From NCBI GenBank assembly GCA_016187415.1, contig JACPJT010000007.1:132821-196820 (forward strand): 64,000 bases of DNA. Direction: 5' to 3'. Positions within the stretch are counted from its first letter, which is position 1; each line of letters starts with the position of its first letter. A program made the translations under genes and the position numbers. The stretch is from Candidatus Aenigmatarchaeota archaeon. GTDB lineage: Archaea; Aenigmatarchaeota; Aenigmatarchaeia; CG10238-14; SCSR01. This document shows positions 1 through 62,349 of this stretch, in pieces. The notes under the pieces are model-generated. The model ran no database searches. It was not told the DNA's origin and saw only the letters and a list, made by a program, of their open reading frames with translations.

Positions 1-3000
1 TCGGGCGCAACGATAAACGCCAACAGCGCAAACGGATATTCACTCCAACTGCCAAACGCCACATCTACATTACAGGGACTTGTCATAGGCAGTGGCGGTG
101 CGAATGTGACACTTCATGCTGAATATGTATCCCAGCTCGGACAGCTTGTTATTGAATCGGAAGGACCGAATACAGGTTCGTCGGTAAAAGTAAATTACGT
201 CAGGACAAATGAGTTCGATTCCTACGCAAACAATGTTCAGATGATGTATTTCGGCCAGGACAAAGTTGACATACGGCAACCGGTCACAGTCTCAACGGGA
301 AGCGGGACACTAAGCATAGAAGTGCCTGTAGGCATAAATACGGCATCCGCAGGCAACTACAAGCTGAATGTAATAGGCGACATAAACGCCTCATGGGGCA
401 ACTTCACCAACATCAACGTCAGCTCTACCTTCAACGCTCCGAACATAGTCGCAGGCGGCGGATGGATTAACGGGACGAATTTTAATGCGTCCAGTACTAT
501 TTACGGCACCAACCTGATATCATACAACTGGGTGAACGCAAGCAACATAAACGCAACAAACTCGATTTATGCAACGAACGGGACATTTTATGGCAATGTA
601 TACCAGCCCGTATATCCCACAGACGACGGCTTGCTTGCATACTGGTCCTTCTCAGAAGGCACAGGAACTGCAACCTACGACAAAAGTCCTTACGGTTATG
701 ACGGTACGCTGACCAATTTTGATTTCAACAGTTCTTCCAATTGGGCGTCTGGCAAGTACGGCAACGCGCTGATGTTTGACGGAAGAAACGACTATGTTAT
801 AGCATCGTCGGTTCCCACAGGCAACGCAATTACAATAGCCGCATGGATAAACGATACAAACACAACCTCCTACAAGGATGTCATCTCAAAAGGGTCTGCA
901 AACGATTATGAGCTTAGGATAGACAACCCATCAGAGGGCGGAAAACTGTCCTGTTTCATCAGAATAAACAACACAATCGAAGGTTCTGGCAACGGCAGAA
1001 TAAGTTCGCCGAGCGTATTGTCCCTTAACACATGGCATTTTGTAGCGTGTTCTTATGACAACGTCACGCAGGTGAAAAATCTTTATGTTGATGGACAGCT
1101 TGTCACAGTGCAGACAAACATAATCGGCAATCTCACAAATTCGAACAACAACGTATACATAGGCGCGAATGGCGGGACACTGAATTTCTGGAATGGAACC
1201 ATGGACGAGGTCAGGATTTATAATAGAAGCCTGTCATACGACGAGATCAGAACGCAGTATCTTGCCGGCATGCAGTCGCACGGTAGCATAATCGAGAATA
1301 AATTCAGGCTAGTCAATACGACTGGAAACAGGATGCTGGAAATAAACAATTCCGGCATATACTTAAACAACTCGCCGTCATCTGCGAATGTCATCCAGTC
1401 GGCAGGCGACCTGTCGTTGCAACCCATCTCTGGAAACGTTGGGATAGGCACGACATCGCCAAAACAAAAATTAGAGATATCCAGCGGTTTTATTAATGTG
1501 TCAAGCAGCGCCACATGGGGATCTGGCATTTACCTGGATGATGTGAATAATGGCGGTATACAATGGATTATACATTCAACAGGTTCAACCGCAAGTCAGG
1601 GCATAAGGAAATTGGTTTTTAGAAGCGACACAAATTCAACGGATGTAATGGTATTGACAGATTCAGGCAACGTCGGCATCAACACAACGAATCCGGCATC
1701 CCTGTTGAATATAATTTCAGGCGGGACGCAGGGGGCGTTGAACATAACGAACGGGACCGGCAGCGGCTCGGTGTTTTATGTGAATGCGTCATCCGGCAAT
1801 GTCGGGATAGGGACATCCTCACCCTCGTCCAGGCTTAATGTCACGGCCAACAGCGCAAGCCCCGCAGTAACTATTGGTCAGCAGGGCGCTGGATTGTCAT
1901 TGGAATTATTGAACGCAACTGGCGTCGGGACAGGTCTTGGTCTCGGCGACAATACAACTATTCTGGAGTATCCGTCCGGGCAGGATTACACCAATTATGC
2001 GGGGACTACATGGACGGTAAAGCCCAATACCGTGATGATAACGGGCAAGACGTCGAACACAAGCAGTTATCTGATGGCAGAAAACATAATAACGTCAATC
2101 ATCCGAGAAACGCCAACAAGCGTATTGAACATAGACCTGTCGACAAGGCACCTGACGCTGAACGCCCAGCAGGGCGATTTGTCAATACTGGGGGCAAGAA
2201 ATATAATGTCAAGCGCAACCAACATCATAACAGATGCAGCAAATCCATACGGAATAAGTGGGGGTGCGGTACCAATCAATATGCTGACAATATATGCAAA
2301 TAGCGGCAATACGAATGCAGTCAACATCACGAATTATGCGACTACAAACAGCCTTGTCATACAGAACGAAACCGGGGGCCTTGCGCGGCAGTTCGTAGTG
2401 ACCAATCTCGGCAAAGTGGGAATAGGGATACTGACGCCGACCCAGCAGCTGGAAGTCGTGGGAAACGTGAATATTACAGGAAATATAAATGCAAGCTGGG
2501 TGAATGCGACTAACATTACTGTAAACAAAGATCTCCATTTGGAGGGAGGCGTATTCGGTCCCGTTGCACCGAAGTCTGGAAAAGGTACGGCAACTTGCGA
2601 TGCCGGTAGTAGTTGTACGGATGCTACAGTGTACACGGTTACAGCTGGCAAGATTTTTGTGGCAACAGACCTAATTTTCAGGTCCTCTCTAGGAGCAACC
2701 TTGGTTCTGAAAGACAGTTCAACTCAAGTGATTCATACGATCAATCCGTCAGGGGGAACAAACGATACGGTAATATCATTCAAAAGCGGCATACCGTTCA
2801 ATACTTCAGTCGTAGTTTCTTGTACAGGAACGTCCACAAACTGCAATGTGTTTGTATCGGGATATGAGATTACAAATACACCAGCCAGATCTGGTTACGG
2901 CTCATCTTCATGCGATGGGAGCAGCACGTGTACCGCAACAACTATAAGGACGGTTCCTATCGGAAAGACATTTGTAGTCACGGATATGATTACCTCGGGA

Positions 3001-55184: not shown

Positions 55185-55730
55185 TTACTCCACGACTATG
55201 GGTACATTTTTCGGAATCTTTTCCAGCATGGTTTCCAAGGCAGCCATCCGCGATTCGAGAAATACAAGCCTGTTTATTATTTCTGTAAACTGGTTGGAAT
55301 CATTCGCCGCTTCTGCTGAAGCCATTTCGATCTGAAGCTCCTTTACAATTTCTATCAGCTCTTCCACCCTGCCGTCGTCCTTTGTAGAGTTTAAAGAATC
55401 GATTTCACTCTGGAGCAGGTCGAACTTCCGCTTTATGTTGGACAGCCCGACCCTTGACAGATTGCTTTCCATTCCCATCAAATTTCCCTGCAAAACAGAA
55501 ACGTCATTCTCCAAAGAAGCTATCCTGTTTTCCACAGCGCCGAATCTCCTCTCAAGGCGTCCGGCAATATCTTTGAATTCATCGAATTCCTTTGATGCGG
55601 AAAATTTTTCATCACGTTTTACATCCAAGTTTTTTTCCTCGACTAATGCCATAAGAAGTTTTTTTATATCGGAAATATCCTTGGTTACGTTCTCCGCCTG
55701 ATGGGGTTCTTGTTCTGCCATGCGAATCAA
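55185..55730 (-). CDS. Coiled-coil protein, a paralogue of the downstream large coiled-coil protein
   Basis: Its C-terminus 'RLVFLESRMAALETMLEKIPKNVPIVVE' parallels 'RIVFLETRLTALESTLSEEKSQPIILE' in the 55735..57516 product. Confidence 0.5.
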   Translation of the reverse strand: MIRMAEQEPHQAENVTKDISDIKKLLMALVEEKNLDVKRDEKFSASKEFDEFKDIAGRLERRFGAVENRIASLENDVSVLQGNLMGMESNLSRVGLSNIKRKFDLLQSEIDSLNSTKDDGRVEELIEIVKELQIEMASAEAANDSNQFTEIINRLVFLESRMAALETMLEKIPKNVPIVVE

Positions 55731-55734
55731 AATC

Positions 55735-57516
55735 TCATTCCAGTATTATCGGCTGCGATTTCTCTTCCGATAGAGTGCTCTCCAAAGCCGTGAGCCTTGT
55801 TTCTAAAAATACTATCCTGTTGATCAGCTCGTCCATCAATGATGTGGATGATGTTGACACACGGCCTTCCAAGTCATTAATCCTGTCGATAATCTGCGCC
55901 ATTCTACCTTCCTGTTCGGATGCCTTGTCACCAATGTCACTTTCCAATGAGTCGACCTTCTCAGCTATCTGGTTCATGCTGCTGATTGTCGATTTTGATG
56001 TCCTGTTCTCCAAGGCCATAACAGATCCCTGCAAAACAGACAGGTCGTTTTCCAACGACTTGATTATATTCTCATTGCTCCCAATCTTCCTGTCGAATGA
56101 CGAAGCAATCTCATGCATGCCTTCGATATTTTTCTCCACGCCTTCAAGCTTCTCCTCAAATTCCGCGTTCCTGTCCTCCGAAAATCTGCCTTCAACCTCC
56201 CTTTTGAGGTTTTCAAATCTTTTGTCCATGTCATCGACCAGCTTCTTGTAGTCGGTTTTCCATTTCAACGTCAGTATGTCCTCTTTGGACTTGTCAAACT
56301 CGTCGATGAACGTTTTCATTTCCGCAAGTTTGTTTTCAACATCCCTGAATCTCGACAGAACCTGATCCAATTCTTTAAACGGCTCGTTGCCCTGCTTTAT
56401 TGTTTCTGCGGCGGCCAAGACAGATCGGAATTCGGATAATTTTTCATCAATTGTCTTCTCAACATCGCCCAAGCCCTCAAAACTTTCAACTTTGTTGTTG
56501 ACCCTGTTGATCAGCGGCCTTATCCCGTTGATTTCTTTCGCCAATTCCTTGGCAAACGAGTCAATCGCATCCAATTTCGAAGTGTTGACAAGCGAATCGT
56601 TTCTGACGTTTTCCAGCTCCTTCAACAGCTTTGTCTGCATCTGCGAGTTCGCCTTTTCACCGACCTCCTGCTTTACCCTTTCGACTTCGCGCTTGTAATT
56701 CTCAATGTCAAATTTGATTGTCGATATGGAATCTTCCAGCCTTCTCTTGAACGAGTCGAAGTTCGGGAATTCGGGAATAAGTGGCAGTATGTAACTTTTA
56801 ACATCGTTCTTCAGTTGTTCTATGTCTATGCCCTCGGCAAGCCTGCTCTGCATGTTTGTTATTGCCGCATTCAATTCGTTCAACTTGTTCTGGAATTCTT
56901 CTTTTGAAGATTGTAGAGAACTTTCCAATTCTTTGATGCCTGGCATTTCTGCTGTCAGCGATTCCTTTATTCTAGACTCAAATTCAGTCATATCAGGAAT
57001 AGTCAGTATCTTCTGCTCAAGAGAATTAATTTTCTCATCCACGCCAGTGGGAATTTCTGCTGTCAGCGATTCCTTTATTCTAGACTCAAATTCAGTCATA
57101 TCAGGAATAGTCAGTATCTTCTGCTCAAGAGAATTAATTTTTTCCTGAAGCTCCGGAGGAATCTTAACCTCTTCTGCTTTCGGCTGGATTCCTTCCAGCA
57201 TTTTTTTCAGTTCCAAGATCCCCGCATTCTCGACCATCGTGAGGTCTTCAATGTCATCTACCCTTTGTTTCAGCTCATCCAGACTTTTGACGTCTATTTT
57301 CTGCACGGTTTCCTGGATTTCAGAAATAGCTATATCCAGTTCAGCCATCTTTTTCTGCGAGAAAGCAAGATCCCTTCTGAATGAACTGCTGTCGGTTTTA
57401 GATATTTTCTTCTTCTCTTCATGGTGTTCTCTTTCAGCCTTCGGTTCGGTCTCAGGCAAGACTTCCCCAACAACCACATCATCTTGAGCGTTACCGCTAT
57501 TCTCGTTTTCTGCCAT
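55735..57516 (-). CDS. Large coiled-coil protein (593 aa) with an internal 36-aa tandem duplication
   Basis: The product is heptad-rich. 'EKINSLEQKILTIPDMTEFESRIKESLTAE' is duplicated, encoded by the 108-bp tandem DNA repeat. Confidence 0.5.
   Translation of the reverse strand: MAENENSGNAQDDVVVGEVLPETEPKAEREHHEEKKKISKTDSSSFRRDLAFSQKKMAELDIAISEIQETVQKIDVKSLDELKQRVDDIEDLTMVENAGILELKKMLEGIQPKAEEVKIPPELQEKINSLEQKILTIPDMTEFESRIKESLTAEIPTGVDEKINSLEQKILTIPDMTEFESRIKESLTAEMPGIKELESSLQSSKEEFQNKLNELNAAITNMQSRLAEGIDIEQLKNDVKSYILPLIPEFPNFDSFKRRLEDSISTIKFDIENYKREVERVKQEVGEKANSQMQTKLLKELENVRNDSLVNTSKLDAIDSFAKELAKEINGIRPLINRVNNKVESFEGLGDVEKTIDEKLSEFRSVLAAAETIKQGNEPFKELDQVLSRFRDVENKLAEMKTFIDEFDKSKEDILTLKWKTDYKKLVDDMDKRFENLKREVEGRFSEDRNAEFEEKLEGVEKNIEGMHEIASSFDRKIGSNENIIKSLENDLSVLQGSVMALENRTSKSTISSMNQIAEKVDSLESDIGDKASEQEGRMAQIIDRINDLEGRVSTSSTSLMDELINRIVFLETRLTALESTLSEEKSQPIILE
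56945..57141. repeat. Tandem duplication, two identical 89-bp cores with 108-bp period
   Basis: 'ATTTCTGCTGTCAGCGATTCCTTTATTCTAGACTCAAATTCAGTCATATCAGGAATAGTCAGTATCTTCTGCTCAAGAGAATTAATTTT' occurs at 56945 and at 57053. Confidence 0.8.
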
Positions 57517-57534: not shown

Positions 57535-58077
57535 TTAGCTTTTCCCAAAGTTATGCTTTTCTATGTTAAGCCAGAGCAGCCAGATGCCGACTATGGCCAG
57601 TATAAGTCCCTCGCGCCAGAGAACAGTGTGGACAATATCAAAAAGATTGAAGCCGAACCTGGTTGAGATTAAGATGGTAGTTGTTATGCGGAGATAATTC
57701 AACACGAACACAATACCAATGCCAATCAGCCCGGCTTTCAGCCTTCTGGACAGCCGCGAGATAGGCGTTGCTAGGATCAGCGCGAATATCGCATACATGC
57801 TTTTCCACCCTGTGGAATCCCAAGATATGTCTATTTTTTGGTTTGCGCCGCCACCAGACAGGTTAATCGTGAAATAATTTGATGATGCGTCATACCCGAG
57901 CGCCTTGATAGACGCCGCAGAAATTTTTGCGTCGAATACCTGCAGAGGCTCGAATGAAAAATTAGTGTACAATGAAATGTAAAGCGGTATCGCAAGCAGG
58001 TTGAATACAATGAAAAAAGTTATAACCGGCTTTAGTTTCTCAACTACTCCTTTCTTTTTCTGTAACCGTTTAGCCAT
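57535..58077 (-). CDS. Exosortase/archaeosortase-domain-like polytopic membrane protein (short form)
   Basis: 'WDSTGWKSMYAIFAL' has Ser at the position of the family's Cys nucleophile (inferred by eye). 'LNYLRITTT' is the N..R motif. The product is 180 aa. Confidence 0.4.
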   Translation of the reverse strand: MAKRLQKKKGVVEKLKPVITFFIVFNLLAIPLYISLYTNFSFEPLQVFDAKISAASIKALGYDASSNYFTINLSGGGANQKIDISWDSTGWKSMYAIFALILATPISRLSRRLKAGLIGIGIVFVLNYLRITTTILISTRFGFNLFDIVHTVLWREGLILAIVGIWLLWLNIEKHNFGKS

Positions 58078-58081
58078 TCAA

Positions 58082-58747
58082 TCAATCCAAACTATACCTG
58101 CTTGTTAAGAGTTTTTTTATCTTGCGTGCCAGATTCTTCCCAACGCCCTTGACTTTTGATAATTCGTTTTCTGACGCTTTGATTACATTCTCCACACTGC
58201 CCAAATTCCCCAGAAGCCTCTTTGCCAATACACCGGATATTCCTGGAATGCTGGACAAGACAAATTCCTGCAGACGTTTCATTTCCTTCGGCTTCTTTCC
58301 TTGCTTGAATCCCAAATTACCGTTGGACTCTTCCTGCTCCTTCTTTGCAATCCAGTATATCATATTCGCAGTGTCGTATGGATTCTTTGTATTCACAAAC
58401 GACACATTAAATTTAGTTATCAGGCTTCCGATGATTGCTTTCAGTGCATTGTCGTTTATATCGCGATTGGAAAATCCCTCCACAACTATGACGGGTTTGC
58501 CGTAATTTTCTTTCATGTATTTTGACTGTTCGAATATCCTGCCGTCTATGAGCGAAGAAACAAAGTCGCCATGCGTTTTCCTTTCTATGACAACGCCATT
58601 CTCAGAACAAACAAAATCGCCAACCTTGAGACTCATTTCGTTCACAGTGGCGCCCAATGTTTTCAAGTTTTCTATCACTTCCTTTTCTCTGTAATCAGCT
58701 ATTATTACAACGCCATTCGCAGGTTTCAGAATTCTTTGTGTGTCCAT
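58082..58747 (-). CDS. xpf: Short XPF/ERCC4 nuclease with a C-terminal (HhH)2 domain
   Basis: 'GDFV...VVIERKTHGDFVSS' carries the ERK motif. C-terminal HhH motifs 'LSSIPGISGVLAKRLL' and 'LSKVKGVGKNLARKI' are present. Confidence 0.75.
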   Translation of the reverse strand: MDTQRILKPANGVVIIADYREKEVIENLKTLGATVNEMSLKVGDFVCSENGVVIERKTHGDFVSSLIDGRIFEQSKYMKENYGKPVIVVEGFSNRDINDNALKAIIGSLITKFNVSFVNTKNPYDTANMIYWIAKKEQEESNGNLGFKQGKKPKEMKRLQEFVLSSIPGISGVLAKRLLGNLGSVENVIKASENELSKVKGVGKNLARKIKKLLTSRYSLD

Positions 58748-58751
58748 GATT

Positions 58752-59609
58752 TCACTTTGTATTCAGTTCGGAATGAAACATTATTTCATCATGCAATAAT
58801 TCAAACTTATATTTCTTCAATATATCATAAAGTATTTTGTTTAATTCGTTTCGATAATTTTTCGATTGTGATGAATAGAACTGATTTAAGAACTCTTGAT
58901 CAATCCACTTCAATTCTTTCAGCATTCGTTCTCTAATATATGGAGCAAGGTTTATGTGCTCAATAAAAAGTTTACGAGTACCAGTTTCATATATCGCTTT
59001 CAAAACTTTGTCCAGTTCTTCCTTCTTCGCAACAAAATGTGGAAGAAGCGGACCTAGAAATGCATATGTCTTTATTCCAGCTTGATTTAATTTTTTCAAT
59101 GTTGATATCCTTGAGCTTGCGAGTGGTGCATTCTTTTCAAAGTACCTAGATATCTTGTCATCTGTAGATGTAATGGTTAAACCAACTTCAACATCTTTGA
59201 TTCTTTTTAGTATTGGTAGAACCTTCAGAACAAGTGGAGACTTTGTAAGTATAGAAAGTTGCCCTGCAAAACCATAGTCAGCAATTATCTGAAGACATCT
59301 CTCCGAAAGTTTGTACTTTGCCTCATATCCAAGAAATGGATCTGTAACAGAACTGAGAAAAACAACTTTACCCTTTCCCTTATTCGGAAGTTTTTTAATT
59401 TCATTTTTCAAAAGTTCAGGTGCATTTACCTTTGCATATACATATCCTCCCCAATCTGAAACCTTTTTCTTAACGAATCTTCCCATAAAACTTGCATAAC
59501 AATAACTGCAACCGAAACTACATCCAACATAAGGATTTATCACATAGTCTGACTCGGGAAGATTTGATTTTACAAGAATAGATTTAGCATTCAATTCGCC
59601 TACAATCAT
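58752..59609 (-). CDS. Radical SAM protein of the SplB/COG1533 ('DNA repair photolyase'-like) family
   Basis: 'INPYVGCSFGCSYCYA' is a canonical CxxxCxxC in the COG1533 context. The gene is tightly coupled between the helicase and nuclease genes. Confidence 0.6.
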   Translation of the reverse strand: MIVGELNAKSILVKSNLPESDYVINPYVGCSFGCSYCYASFMGRFVKKKVSDWGGYVYAKVNAPELLKNEIKKLPNKGKGKVVFLSSVTDPFLGYEAKYKLSERCLQIIADYGFAGQLSILTKSPLVLKVLPILKRIKDVEVGLTITSTDDKISRYFEKNAPLASSRISTLKKLNQAGIKTYAFLGPLLPHFVAKKEELDKVLKAIYETGTRKLFIEHINLAPYIRERMLKELKWIDQEFLNQFYSSQSKNYRNELNKILYDILKKYKFELLHDEIMFHSELNTK

Positions 59610-59610
59610 G

Positions 59611-61143
59611 TTACACCCAATCCAATAAGTTATTTTTCTTCTTAACGCCCTTATCCTTCATTTTGTACAGCATGCCCTTCATCTTTTTTTCCTTCCTGAT
59701 AGATGAATAATAATACACTTCGTCTCTTGTGCCTTTGGTTATCAAAAATATCACCTTTCCTATGGACTGCCTCCCCACCCTTCCCCTTCGCTGGATGTTT
59801 CTGATTTCGCTCGGCACGCTTTCGTAAAATATGGCATAATCTATCGAAGGAACGTCTATGCCTTCTTCTATCACTTGCGTGCCTAACAAGACTGGAAACT
59901 CGCCTCCCTTGAATCTGTTCAGGACGTCCACCTGCTGCTGCTGCGTAAGTCCCCTGCCTTCCTTTATGGCCTGCCCAATAAGCACATCAGAATTAATTCC
60001 AGCTTCAGTCAGCATCTTGTTTATTTTTTCGACAGCCGCGCGATAGTTCGCGAATATGATTATCTTCGAATCCGGTTTTCCACCCAGCAATTTTTTCACA
60101 ACCTCAACGGTCTTTCTCAATTTCGGATGTTCTATATCGCTAATGGAGAGATCTTCGCATAATTTCACTGTTTCCCTGATTCTGGGATCCTTGAATAGTC
60201 TGATATCAGTTCTTTTCTTGCTCTTTTCTATTCTTTTGAGAAATTCGTACAGGAATTTCACGCCTTGGGTTTCCAACAATTCGATCGCATGCATCAACTT
60301 GATTGCGTCGGCTGTTCTCATCATGGCCCAGAAAGCGGCGTAGTTCTTTGACCCCCGCATATAGCTTGCAATAATCTTTCTCTGAGTGTCCAAAAGCATT
60401 TTTTTTATCGGCTTGTAACTAAAAGTGTAATGATGGTCCTTGAGCCAATACAAATCATCTTTGAGAACTTCTTCCAATAACGCCTTTATTTTTTTGAATT
60501 CCTCAGGCACTTCCACGTAAATAGTCTCGGTTTCAACTGGCTGGACATAACTTTCAACATCCGAATCGCTCTCGCTTCTTATCTCGACGCCTTTGATGAA
60601 AAGGTTGTCGCATATTTCCTGTATCTTTTCCTGTGTGGCGCCCGGCGATGCTGTCAGCCCCAGGATTTGAGGATATTTTGATTGCATCCTGTATTTCTTT
60701 GCGACATACGAGTACGAATATTCTTTTACAGTGCGGTGCGCCTCATCAAATACCACAAGGGAGAAATCGCCCAGATCAATCTTATTATTTTCCAAATCAT
60801 TTTCAATGGTTTGCGGCGTGGCGATTATGATTTTGGCACGCTTGTAAAGTCCAACCCTGTCTTCCGGCCTGACTTTTCCGGTCAACAGAATTATTTCATC
60901 TTTCGGCACATTTGTAAAATCTTCAAACGTCTTCTGGTGCTGCGCAGACAGCGGCCGAGTAGGCGACAGTATCATTATCTTGCTTTCGGGAAATTTTTCC
61001 AGTCTCTTCGCAGCGACCATCAGCGATATCAGTGTCTTGCCCATTCCCGTAGGCAGAACCACGAGTGTATTTTTCTGCGATGCGGATTCCGCTATGTGTT
61101 TTTGGTAATCCCTTGGCTGGAGAGACTCGTTAAGCAACGGCAT
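59611..61143 (-). CDS. hef: Hef/FANCM-like SF2 helicase (helicase part only)
   Basis: 'RDYQKHIAESASQKNTLVVLPTGMGKT' is motif I and 'VVFDEAHR' is DEAH. An inserted domain sits between the RecA lobes, and 'QRRGRVGR' is motif VI. Confidence 0.7.
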   Translation of the reverse strand: MPLLNESLQPRDYQKHIAESASQKNTLVVLPTGMGKTLISLMVAAKRLEKFPESKIMILSPTRPLSAQHQKTFEDFTNVPKDEIILLTGKVRPEDRVGLYKRAKIIIATPQTIENDLENNKIDLGDFSLVVFDEAHRTVKEYSYSYVAKKYRMQSKYPQILGLTASPGATQEKIQEICDNLFIKGVEIRSESDSDVESYVQPVETETIYVEVPEEFKKIKALLEEVLKDDLYWLKDHHYTFSYKPIKKMLLDTQRKIIASYMRGSKNYAAFWAMMRTADAIKLMHAIELLETQGVKFLYEFLKRIEKSKKRTDIRLFKDPRIRETVKLCEDLSISDIEHPKLRKTVEVVKKLLGGKPDSKIIIFANYRAAVEKINKMLTEAGINSDVLIGQAIKEGRGLTQQQQVDVLNRFKGGEFPVLLGTQVIEEGIDVPSIDYAIFYESVPSEIRNIQRRGRVGRQSIGKVIFLITKGTRDEVYYYSSIRKEKKMKGMLYKMKDKGVKKKNNLLDWV

Positions 61144-61182
61144 TGTATAACTTTTAAATCCTTAGATTAATTAAGCGGTTGT

Positions 61183-61895: not shown

Positions 61896-61989
61896 GCTGA
61901 GGTTGGACAGTCTGGTCGTCCAGCGGTCTCGAATAATCAAGACAACCGCCGCACGAAAGTGCATGTGGGTTCAAATCCCATCCTCAGCG
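61896..61989 (+). tRNA. tRNA-Ser (anticodon CGA, inferred) with a ~10-nt intron and a long variable arm
   Basis: GCTGAGG...GCGGT-CTCGAA[intron]A-ACCGC, then a long variable arm, then GTGGGTTCAAATCCCAT-CCTCAGC-G. Confidence 0.6.
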
Positions 61990-62349
61990 CTAATATTCTT
62001 GCCAAAAGCTTATCTTGTCCGCATTTTGATATCTTGTTCCACCTAAAGTTCTGAGTGTAGGCTGTGGAGGTCCCAGTGAATCAACCATTCTCCAATATGC
62101 ATCAGTATTGAGTTGAATATAAAATCCCGAATCATTTCTTCCTACCTTTATGCCAGTACCATATCTATCTTCAAAATCTTCTTGCTGAACTACAACTTTC
62201 TGGGCTTCTGGAACTTCTAGTTCGAGCGGTTTATGTCTTACTGTTAGTTTTCCTCCTTCCTGATATGTCTCTAACATACCCAATTTGGTGACATCATCCT
62301 TTGTTAGAAATATGTCAATATCATTATTTCGATAAGTTGCTCGAGCCAC
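61990..62349 (-). CDS. Hypothetical protein
   Basis: The ORF is 119 aa long. No motif was recognised. Confidence 0.35.
   Translation of the reverse strand: MARATYRNNDIDIFLTKDDVTKLGMLETYQEGGKLTVRHKPLELEVPEAQKVVVQQEDFEDRYGTGIKVGRNDSGFYIQLNTDAYWRMVDSLGPPQPTLRTLGGTRYQNADKISFWQEY

Follow-up and report, generated by a model that had tools for sequence, protein, structure and literature searches.

A split hef operon typical of Aenigmatarchaeota that probably carries a laterally acquired radical-SAM gene between its halves

Why does a radical S-adenosylmethionine (SAM) gene stand between the helicase gene and the nuclease gene of Hef, and do the three products work together? The question was raised by a stretch of 64,000 nucleotides (nt) from a Candidatus Aenigmatarchaeota genome, which is called the window in this text. 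A preliminary description had read three tightly coupled minus-strand genes as a Hef-type helicase, a COG1533 radical-SAM protein (rSAM) and a short XPF nuclease, and had proposed a functional link between radical-SAM repair and Hef/XPF. The explanation that we consider probable is that of a split hef operon of the kind typical of the phylum, which in a few lineages carries a laterally acquired, functional accessory gene of the spore photoproduct lyase (SPL) family. The locus is no new kind of system.

The three genes were read on the minus strand. The helicase half (59611-61143, 510 amino acids (aa)), a superfamily 2 (SF2) DEAH helicase, was assigned by the model NF010337, Pfam and sequence motifs. 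It was followed by the rSAM gene (58752-59609, 285 aa), read as an inserted SPL-like gene from PF04055, Foldseek, base composition and substitution rates. The nuclease half (58082-58747, 221 aa), with ERCC4 and tandem helix-hairpin-helix (HhH)2 domains, was assigned by NF010337, ERCC4, HHH_5 and HHH_2. In the list of open reading frames (ORFs) all three were intact and lay in three different frames. A single nucleotide (59610) separated the helicase stop from the rSAM start (TAA, c, ATG), and 4 nt (58748-58751) separated the rSAM stop from the XPF start (TGA, aatc, ATG). Thus, the coordinates and the spacing of about 1-4 nt given in the preliminary description were exact. Such spacing appears too tight for anything but co-expression, and the helicase, rSAM and XPF genes are presumably co-transcribed.

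The two outer genes were compared with family models. With 610.8 bits, the helicase passed the cut-off (610) of NF010337, the Hef model of NCBIfam. Its match spans positions 12-513 of the 781 in the model, and that of the nuclease spans positions 568-780 with 215.7 bits. Pfam gave DEAD, ResIII, Helicase_C and RNA_helicase_helical for the helicase and ERCC4 (86.9 bits), HHH_5 and HHH_2 for the nuclease. The motifs GMGKT, DEAH, TAS and QRRGRVGR (ATPase motifs I, II and VI) were present in the former, and GDx14ERKx3D was present in the latter. Both family assignments made earlier, a Hef-type helicase and an ERCC4/XPF nuclease with (HhH)2, were borne out. In the case of the crenarchaeal short-Xpf model NF040956, the nuclease reached 110.8 bits, below the cut-off of 300 and lower than its score with the Hef model. 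Unlike crenarchaeal-type short Xpf, it does not stand alone, and its cognate helicase gene lies in the same operon. Hef is defined as one polypeptide, whereas here the helicase ORF ends in a stop codon and the nuclease ORF lies in another frame. The interdomain linker of about 55 positions (NF010337 positions 513-568) was covered by neither half. Together the halves are a genuine split Hef without the interdomain linker. A protein with 100% identity to the XPF was found in a groundwater metagenome-assembled genome (MAG) of Candidatus Aenigmarchaeota.

The extreme C-terminus of the helicase (window 59611-59640; L013-L055) showed a basic stretch followed by (N/T)L(L/M/V/I)DW(V/L/I), and the window protein ended in ...NLLDWV. 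This end is conserved and looks like the C-terminal PIP-like (PCNA-interacting) peptides of archaea, and it might take over the PCNA binding of the linker that the split protein lacks. The same C-terminal codons also hold GGGTG, which is Shine-Dalgarno-like, for the next gene.

An XPF-alignment scan with one genome per species returned 72 loci, and both Hef halves were visible in 58 of them. They were split into adjacent genes in 43 loci and fused in 15. The split loci were all of the Aenigmatarchaeota type except one Nanoarchaeota contig, and the fused ones came from Asgard lineages, Halobacterium, Poseidoniales and one Micrarchaeota contig. The gap between the split halves was within -13 to +64 nt in 32 loci and 178-294 nt in six, and five loci held large inserts. 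The best 120 XPF homologs were all 200-226 aa long, and the synteny of dph6, helicase, XPF and archaeosortase was kept across Aenigmatarchaeota. Since empty split junctions dominated (the halves abut in 32 of 43), the split of Hef is ancestral, phylum-wide and independent of rSAM. The idea that the rSAM insertion caused the split was rejected by this majority. Therefore, the earlier claim of separate helicase and nuclease genes with rSAM between them held as a true split, and a split specific to rSAM or caused by it did not. A review describes Hef as a two-domain protein specific to euryarchaea (PMC7776575). No earlier description of a split Hef in DPANN was found in the literature, which does not prove that none exists. 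In addition, the full Aenigmatarchaeota synteny of dph6, split hef and archaeosortase was seen in a sequence titled 'bacterium isolate clean1851' (L047, DAIDAX010000004.1), which is probably a mislabelled archaeal MAG.

The middle protein was examined by family models and by its predicted structure. Pfam gave Radical_SAM PF04055 with 57 bits. The best NCBIfam match was rSAM_mob_pairB TIGR04470, 'radical SAM mobile pair protein B' (126.1 bits, cut-off 410), followed by PA0069 NF033668 (120.9 bits, cut-off 360) and Rv2578c NF038135 (119.6 bits, cut-off 430), all below their cut-offs. Judged by these scores, rSAM is related to the three families and a member of none. With the SPL models TIGR04070 and PF20903, it reached 29.9 bits (cut-off 400) and 23.7 bits (cut-off 27). 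True SPL membership was rejected, since the sequence scored far under these cut-offs. Single-sequence and profile searches against PDB sequences gave no significant match, with SPL at E ~0.9 by profile.

An AlphaFold model of rSAM was built on 36 homologs (pLDDT 81.7, pTM 0.84). When it was compared with the PDB by Foldseek, the six best matches were all spore photoproduct lyase, with 4fhc/4fhg at the top (E 6e-10 to 3e-9, TM 0.63-0.67, 15% identity). The next radical-SAM family followed at E 4.6e-6, four orders of magnitude weaker. The model suggested an SPL-type fold. The protein has only four cysteines. Three of them form CX3CX2C at residues 30-37 (C30, C34 and C37, in CSFGCSYC), a motif that is followed by Tyr (CSYCY) as in SPL and is invariant in the family alignment. 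The fourth, Cys105, is also family-invariant. The SPL features used for this comparison, the cluster motif CX3CX2C and the flanking Tyr, were taken from PMC3467042. With PF04055, the COG1533-type NCBIfam matches and the SPL fold, the reading of this gene as a COG1533 'DNA repair photolyase'-like radical-SAM protein was upheld. In several phyla of bacteria, COG1533 genes are under LexA/SOS control (PMC4951493, PMC8565304).

Relatives of rSAM were also found on viral contigs of IMG/VR, at a distant 27-35% identity, and the phage family phrog_13321 matched it with 151 bits. The wider family seems to include mobile members, and viral status of the clade embedded in Hef is not supported by these similarities. 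A direct viral origin of rSAM was rejected on the low identity of the IMG/VR relatives.

We looked for the lineages that carry rSAM between the Hef halves. Besides the window, the genome scan gave only L016. A 1.3-kb contig from the protein database (L008) added a third, with rSAM 80%, helicase tail 82% and XPF start 77% identical to the window and the same tight arrangement. The order of helicase, rSAM and XPF recurred only in these two loci, and the adjacency was not conserved. A Logan contig of 1987 nt (SRR12113430, L007) combined a helicase tail of 100% L016 type with an XPF of 100% window type. Its rSAM showed 64 L016-type sites and then 43 window-type sites, with no private differences and with one breakpoint in a 32-nt identical stretch. 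It was rejected as an independent instance, since this two-block mosaic fits a k=31 assembly chimera. Such a chimera is the most likely explanation; if the contig is real, it would be a direct recombinant between the two hosts. It shows that L016-type and window-type populations co-occur in one sample.

The host tree built from helicase and XPF grouped the window with the rSAM-negative L014, L017, L019, L043 and L018, left L016 outside, and placed L008 nearest to L043, L018 and L014. The same five loci were the closest helicase relatives of the window, and their junctions were empty. Because empty-junction sisters were interspersed with the window, L016 and L008, the presence of rSAM was patchy. 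The rSAM tree gave ((window, L016), L008) as one clade inside DPANN homologs, which conflicted with the host tree.

The history of rSAM was compared with that of its flanks. Between the window and L016, the helicase was 69.5% identical in aa and 67.6% in nt, with non-synonymous divergence (dN) of 0.22, saturated synonymous divergence (dS) and four-fold-site identity of 0.29. For XPF the values were 68.5%, 67.1%, dN 0.24, saturated dS and 0.29. For rSAM they were 93.7%, 87.2%, dN 0.030, dS 0.74 and 0.62. The sliding identity jumped from ~0.65 to 0.97 at the rSAM ATG and dropped from ~0.87 to ~0.65 at the XPF ATG. From these steps, and on the left side also from the comparison of filled with empty junctions, the 1-nt spacer was taken as the left edge of the acquired segment and the 4-nt spacer as its right edge. 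The window rSAM had a GC content of 33.2% (25.9% at third codon positions, GC3), compared to 41-45% (GC3 48-54%) in the adjacent genes. Since rSAM diverged more recently than its flanks, with steps at the ORF ends, the gene is likely to have been exchanged laterally after the hosts diverged. Between the window and L008, all three genes were about equally diverged. These comparisons are most simply explained if the ORF was inserted once and was then transferred laterally, at least once, between hosts that had already diverged. In addition, a dN/dS of 0.04 between the window and L016 marks rSAM as functional and under strong purifying selection. As a case of lateral exchange of a single ORF between ultra-small archaea that occur together, the locus would be clean and datable.

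Homologs of rSAM outside the Hef junction formed a large family, with 65-74% identity in DPANN archaea and ~57-63% in candidate phyla radiation (CPR) bacteria, the Patescibacteria. The protein belongs to a separate clade common to DPANN archaea and CPR bacteria. The 57-63% identity between DPANN and CPR/Patescibacteria (Roizmanbacteria, Collierbacteria) is unusually high for proteins from two domains of life, and it suggests that ultra-small groundwater organisms transferred the gene between the domains. Stand-alone homologs were found in genomes of 29-37% GC. The eight homologs that were looked up lay in eight unrelated contexts, among them one in a different Aenigmarchaeota MAG and those of the outgroups closest to the Hef-embedded clade. 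Hef or XPF stood beside rSAM in none of these eight contexts and in none of 80 metagenome loci (47-74% identity). A census of 129 ORFs flanking rSAM homologs gave 94 Pfam families with no ERCC4 or Hef among them. The commonest neighbours were an antitoxin and a GNAT acetyltransferase with four occurrences each, and genes of DNA hygiene were scattered (Ham1 three times, AlkD-like, HhH-GPD and EEP twice each). A conserved operon partner for the family was rejected by this census.

The only other proximity of rSAM and XPF was seen on the low-GC contig L151, one of the 80 metagenome loci, where a short XPF-like gene (192 aa) lay 1.2 kb away from a 74%-identical rSAM. The rSAM and XPF-like genes (L151:153-731, minus strand, and 1960-2562, plus strand) were divergent, with a PIN/antitoxin (toxin-antitoxin) pair between them.

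The junction itself was compared between filled and empty loci, and the difference was exactly the ORF and a few bases. The junctions had in common the last helicase codons (GATTGGGTGTRA, containing the Shine-Dalgarno-like GGGTG) and the first XPF codons (ATGGAYAC), and nothing else. At the rSAM ends, no target-site duplication, inverted repeat or attC-like element was found beyond chance-level short matches. An integron- or transposon-like cassette was rejected, since these elements were absent and only 1 + 4 nt were non-coding.

Other genes were found at the same junction. In L053 it held a saccharopine-dehydrogenase gene on the same strand, in L046 a membrane ORF, and in L081 (Nanoarchaeota) an EEP-family ORF. 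In L045, a hot-spring Aenigmatarchaeota genome, a 468-aa ORF (L045:4193-5599, minus strand) had helix-turn-helix (HTH) domains at its N- and C-terminal ends, and GIWVAEGT and GVIAGEGW in it are two LAGLIDADG-like motifs. It matched Pfam LAGLIDADG_3 with 21.2 bits, just under the cut-off, and may be a free-standing homing endonuclease. Several Aenigmatarchaeota from hot springs share a small ORF of ~87-91 aa (MIEKLKEISRYTRKIPE...) that directly follows the helicase gene and precedes XPF (L045:5691-5954, L046:4865-5137, L023:5592-5867, and degraded at L029:5699-5955). This small ORF had no Pfam or PHROG match. Because unrelated genes occupy the same junction, a position between the halves is by itself no evidence of function with Hef.

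From these results, we propose the following course for the probable reading, the phylum-typical split operon with an acquired accessory gene. The division of hef into a gene for the helicase and one for the ERCC4-(HhH)2 nuclease is ancestral and extends through the phylum. The two abutting halves would be translated from one transcript and presumably reassembled as a two-subunit Hef. In the groundwater lineages of the window, L016 and L008, a promoter-less single ORF for an SPL-family rSAM would have been placed exactly in the 1-3 nt spacer between the halves, where it would reuse the Shine-Dalgarno-like GGGTG inside the conserved last helicase codons. The cassette probably has a single origin, since the three Hef-embedded copies form one clade, and its donors may have been of low-GC DPANN type. 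Divergent hosts would later have exchanged it, and recombination across the short conserved sequences of the junction is the most likely route. By analogy with SPL, the product of the cassette is probably a working [4Fe-4S]/SAM enzyme that would use radical chemistry on damaged DNA. As a passenger of the hef operon, the cassette would gain expression linked to damage or replication.

Several points weigh against this reading. The loci were retrieved by XPF peptide patterns with one genome per species, so that the counts are samples. The window rSAM is more AT-rich than the L016 copy (33% vs 39% GC), though the window genome is the more GC-rich one. Of the directional differences, 76 sites have A/T in the window and G/C in L016, against 27 sites of the opposite kind. 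This composition leaves the donor and the direction of the exchange unclear. No recombination site, repeat or recombinase was found at the rSAM junction. On either side, the identity steps lie no more than ~30 nt from the ORF end, and ordinary homologous recombination between 67%-identical flanks is not expected to resolve so precisely. The precise steps without a recombination element leave the transfer mechanism unexplained. Selection for co-function with Hef could be the reason why three lineages keep the same tight arrangement and why the gene was re-acquired at this site.

Such co-function is central to a dedicated three-component repair module, in which rSAM would reverse or process a replication-blocking lesion, working physically or sequentially with the Hef subunits at stalled forks, and the gene order would be selected for that partnership. 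We regard this as doubtful. Co-expression forced by the two short spacers, an arrangement intact in three lineages with strong constraint on rSAM, and re-acquisition of the cassette at this site and not elsewhere agree with a module, as do the SPL-like fold, the SOS regulation of COG1533 in bacteria, the proximity to an XPF-like gene in L151 and the few stand-alone homologs that adjoin AlkD-like, HhH-GPD, EEP or Ham1 genes. However, the insert was present in one of ~42 species-level Aenigmatarchaeota Hef loci of the genome collection and absent from the nearest sisters, Hef adjoined none of the 88 other rSAM loci, and no partner recurred among the 129 neighbouring ORFs. The saccharopine dehydrogenase and the membrane protein at the same junction elsewhere mean that position alone implies no function. 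It is unlikely that the promoter-less cassette moves between divergent Aenigmatarchaeota specifically into the split-hef spacer because it works with the Hef subunits, with the fission of Hef separately showing that the linkage is dispensable. If rSAM is a partner of Hef, the locus would be a three-protein module that couples radical-based lesion reversal to fork remodelling and cleavage. A real partnership between rSAM and Hef is possible, and its comparative support is confined to a small clade. Because rSAM is rare at the junction, has no Hef beside it elsewhere and arrived laterally and recently, the functional link proposed in the preliminary description is reduced to co-expression in that clade; co-expression by tight packing stood, and comparative support beyond the clade did not.

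The patchy presence of rSAM might also be read as that of a selfish element. A self-propagating mobile cassette, which rSAM would form or be part of and which would be site-specific for the helicase/XPF junction as homing genes and integron cassettes are for their sites, would fit one identical site, a phylogeny in conflict with the hosts and a foreign composition, together with the 'mobile pair protein B' and phrog_13321 matches, the distant viral relatives and the LAGLIDADG-like ORF at the same junction in L045. We consider it quite improbable, since the ORF brings no recombinase or endonuclease domain and none of the end structures sought, its NCBIfam match is far under the cut-off (126 vs 410 bits), and the viral relatives are only remotely similar. 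In all other genomes the homologs occupy different, unrelated sites, and the strong purifying selection is typical of a host-useful enzyme. Ancestral presence of rSAM between the Hef halves, with many precise deletions and slow evolution as the only reason for the similarity between the window and L016, was disfavoured by the synonymous-site data. Four-fold and synonymous sites, on which constraint on the protein does not act, were far more similar in rSAM than in the flanks, identity stepped at the ORF ends, and GC3 of rSAM was half that of host genes. At least four or five exact deletions would be needed, each leaving a clean junction of stop, 1 nt and ATG. The single clade of the three embedded copies would agree with such a history, as would the high conservation of the family (~60% identity even between archaea and CPR bacteria), and we hold it to be very improbable. 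The accessory-gene reading is preferred over these alternatives.

The surroundings of the three genes were also read. An archaeosortase/exosortase-family membrane protein gene (57535-58077, minus strand; PF09721 43.9 bits, TIGR04178 46.9 bits) followed XPF after a gap of 4 nt. It was found 3' of XPF in most Aenigmatarchaeota loci as a kept syntenic neighbour. It is probably on the same transcript as helicase, rSAM and XPF, and it is outside the repair function. On the other side, an A/T-rich spacer of 39 nt (61144-61182) lay between the helicase gene and the divergent dph6, a pair that was kept across the phylum. No other non-coding stretch could hold a promoter for the hel-rSAM-xpf-artX string, and the spacer is regarded as its putative promoter site.

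Elsewhere in the window, a 593-aa coiled-coil protein (55735-57516, minus strand) contained an internal near-perfect duplication (EKINSLEQKILTIPDMTEFESRIKESLTAE twice). It was followed by a 181-aa coiled-coil paralog (55185-55730). The coiled-coil proteins at 55185-57516 gave only weak matches to SMC/Rad50 coils and DUF7310. A 94-nt tRNA (61896-61989, plus strand) was found by Rfam with 39 bits and was not called by ARAGORN; it is probably an intron-containing archaeal tRNA. A 119-aa ORF without family match (61990-62349, minus strand) abutted it.

A two-gene Hef in a DPANN phylum, together with fused Hef in Asgard, Micrarchaeota and Poseidoniales contigs, goes beyond the textbook view of a fused, euryarchaeon-specific enzyme. 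The fission across the phylum would also mean, if true, that helicase and nuclease can do without a covalent link. Such a natural fission could help to dissect the cooperation of helicase and nuclease, and also the PCNA binding site once the linker is gone.

Compared with the euryarchaeal Hef of Pyrococcus furiosus, Thermococcus kodakarensis and Haloferax volcanii, the window locus keeps both catalytic modules and their order, with ERCC4-(HhH)2 after the SF2 DEAH helicase. However, the enzyme of the window is made of two polypeptides without the linker of ~55 positions, a third gene stands between the halves, and the host is a DPANN archaeon, whereas Hef has been described as euryarchaeon-specific. 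In Thermococcus, the Hef linker is a disordered region that binds PCNA and HAN (PMC7776575).

SplB of Bacillus and Geobacillus (PDB 4FHC) shares with rSAM the CX3CX2C motif followed by Tyr, and it is the closest solved fold. In SPL a fourth conserved cysteine, Cys140, is placed as the H-atom donor, and a beta-hairpin with a conserved aromatic residue serves base flipping. The fourth cysteine of rSAM, Cys105, may be the counterpart of Cys140. In contrast, rSAM is 15% identical to SplB, shorter (285 vs 340 aa) and far under the cut-offs of the SPL models. SPL repairs 5-thyminyl-5,6-dihydrothymine in the DNA of spores. Since the archaeal host does not sporulate, this spore photoproduct is unlikely to be the natural substrate of rSAM.

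The bacterial COG1533 proteins (PA0069, Rv2578c and mobile pair protein B) are of the same length class and gave the best sequence matches to rSAM (120-126 bits). These bacterial members have a LexA-linked association with DNA damage in several phyla, and some are mobile or phage-borne. We know of no LexA system in archaea, and unlike the mobile pair, rSAM had no pair-A partner gene at the locus. To our knowledge, no substrate has been established for the COG1533 'DNA repair photolyase' family except in spore formers, though it is a recurrent SOS gene. A COG1533 copy hard-wired into a fork-repair operon would give a concrete context for testing the family.

Phage genes can be interrupted by free-standing homing-endonuclease genes. 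By analogy, the locus may be compared with them, as a foreign ORF appears exactly between the halves of a protein that is single elsewhere and is patchy among relatives. However, the split of Hef is phylum-wide and predates the insert, and rSAM is an enzyme without a nuclease or recombinase domain.

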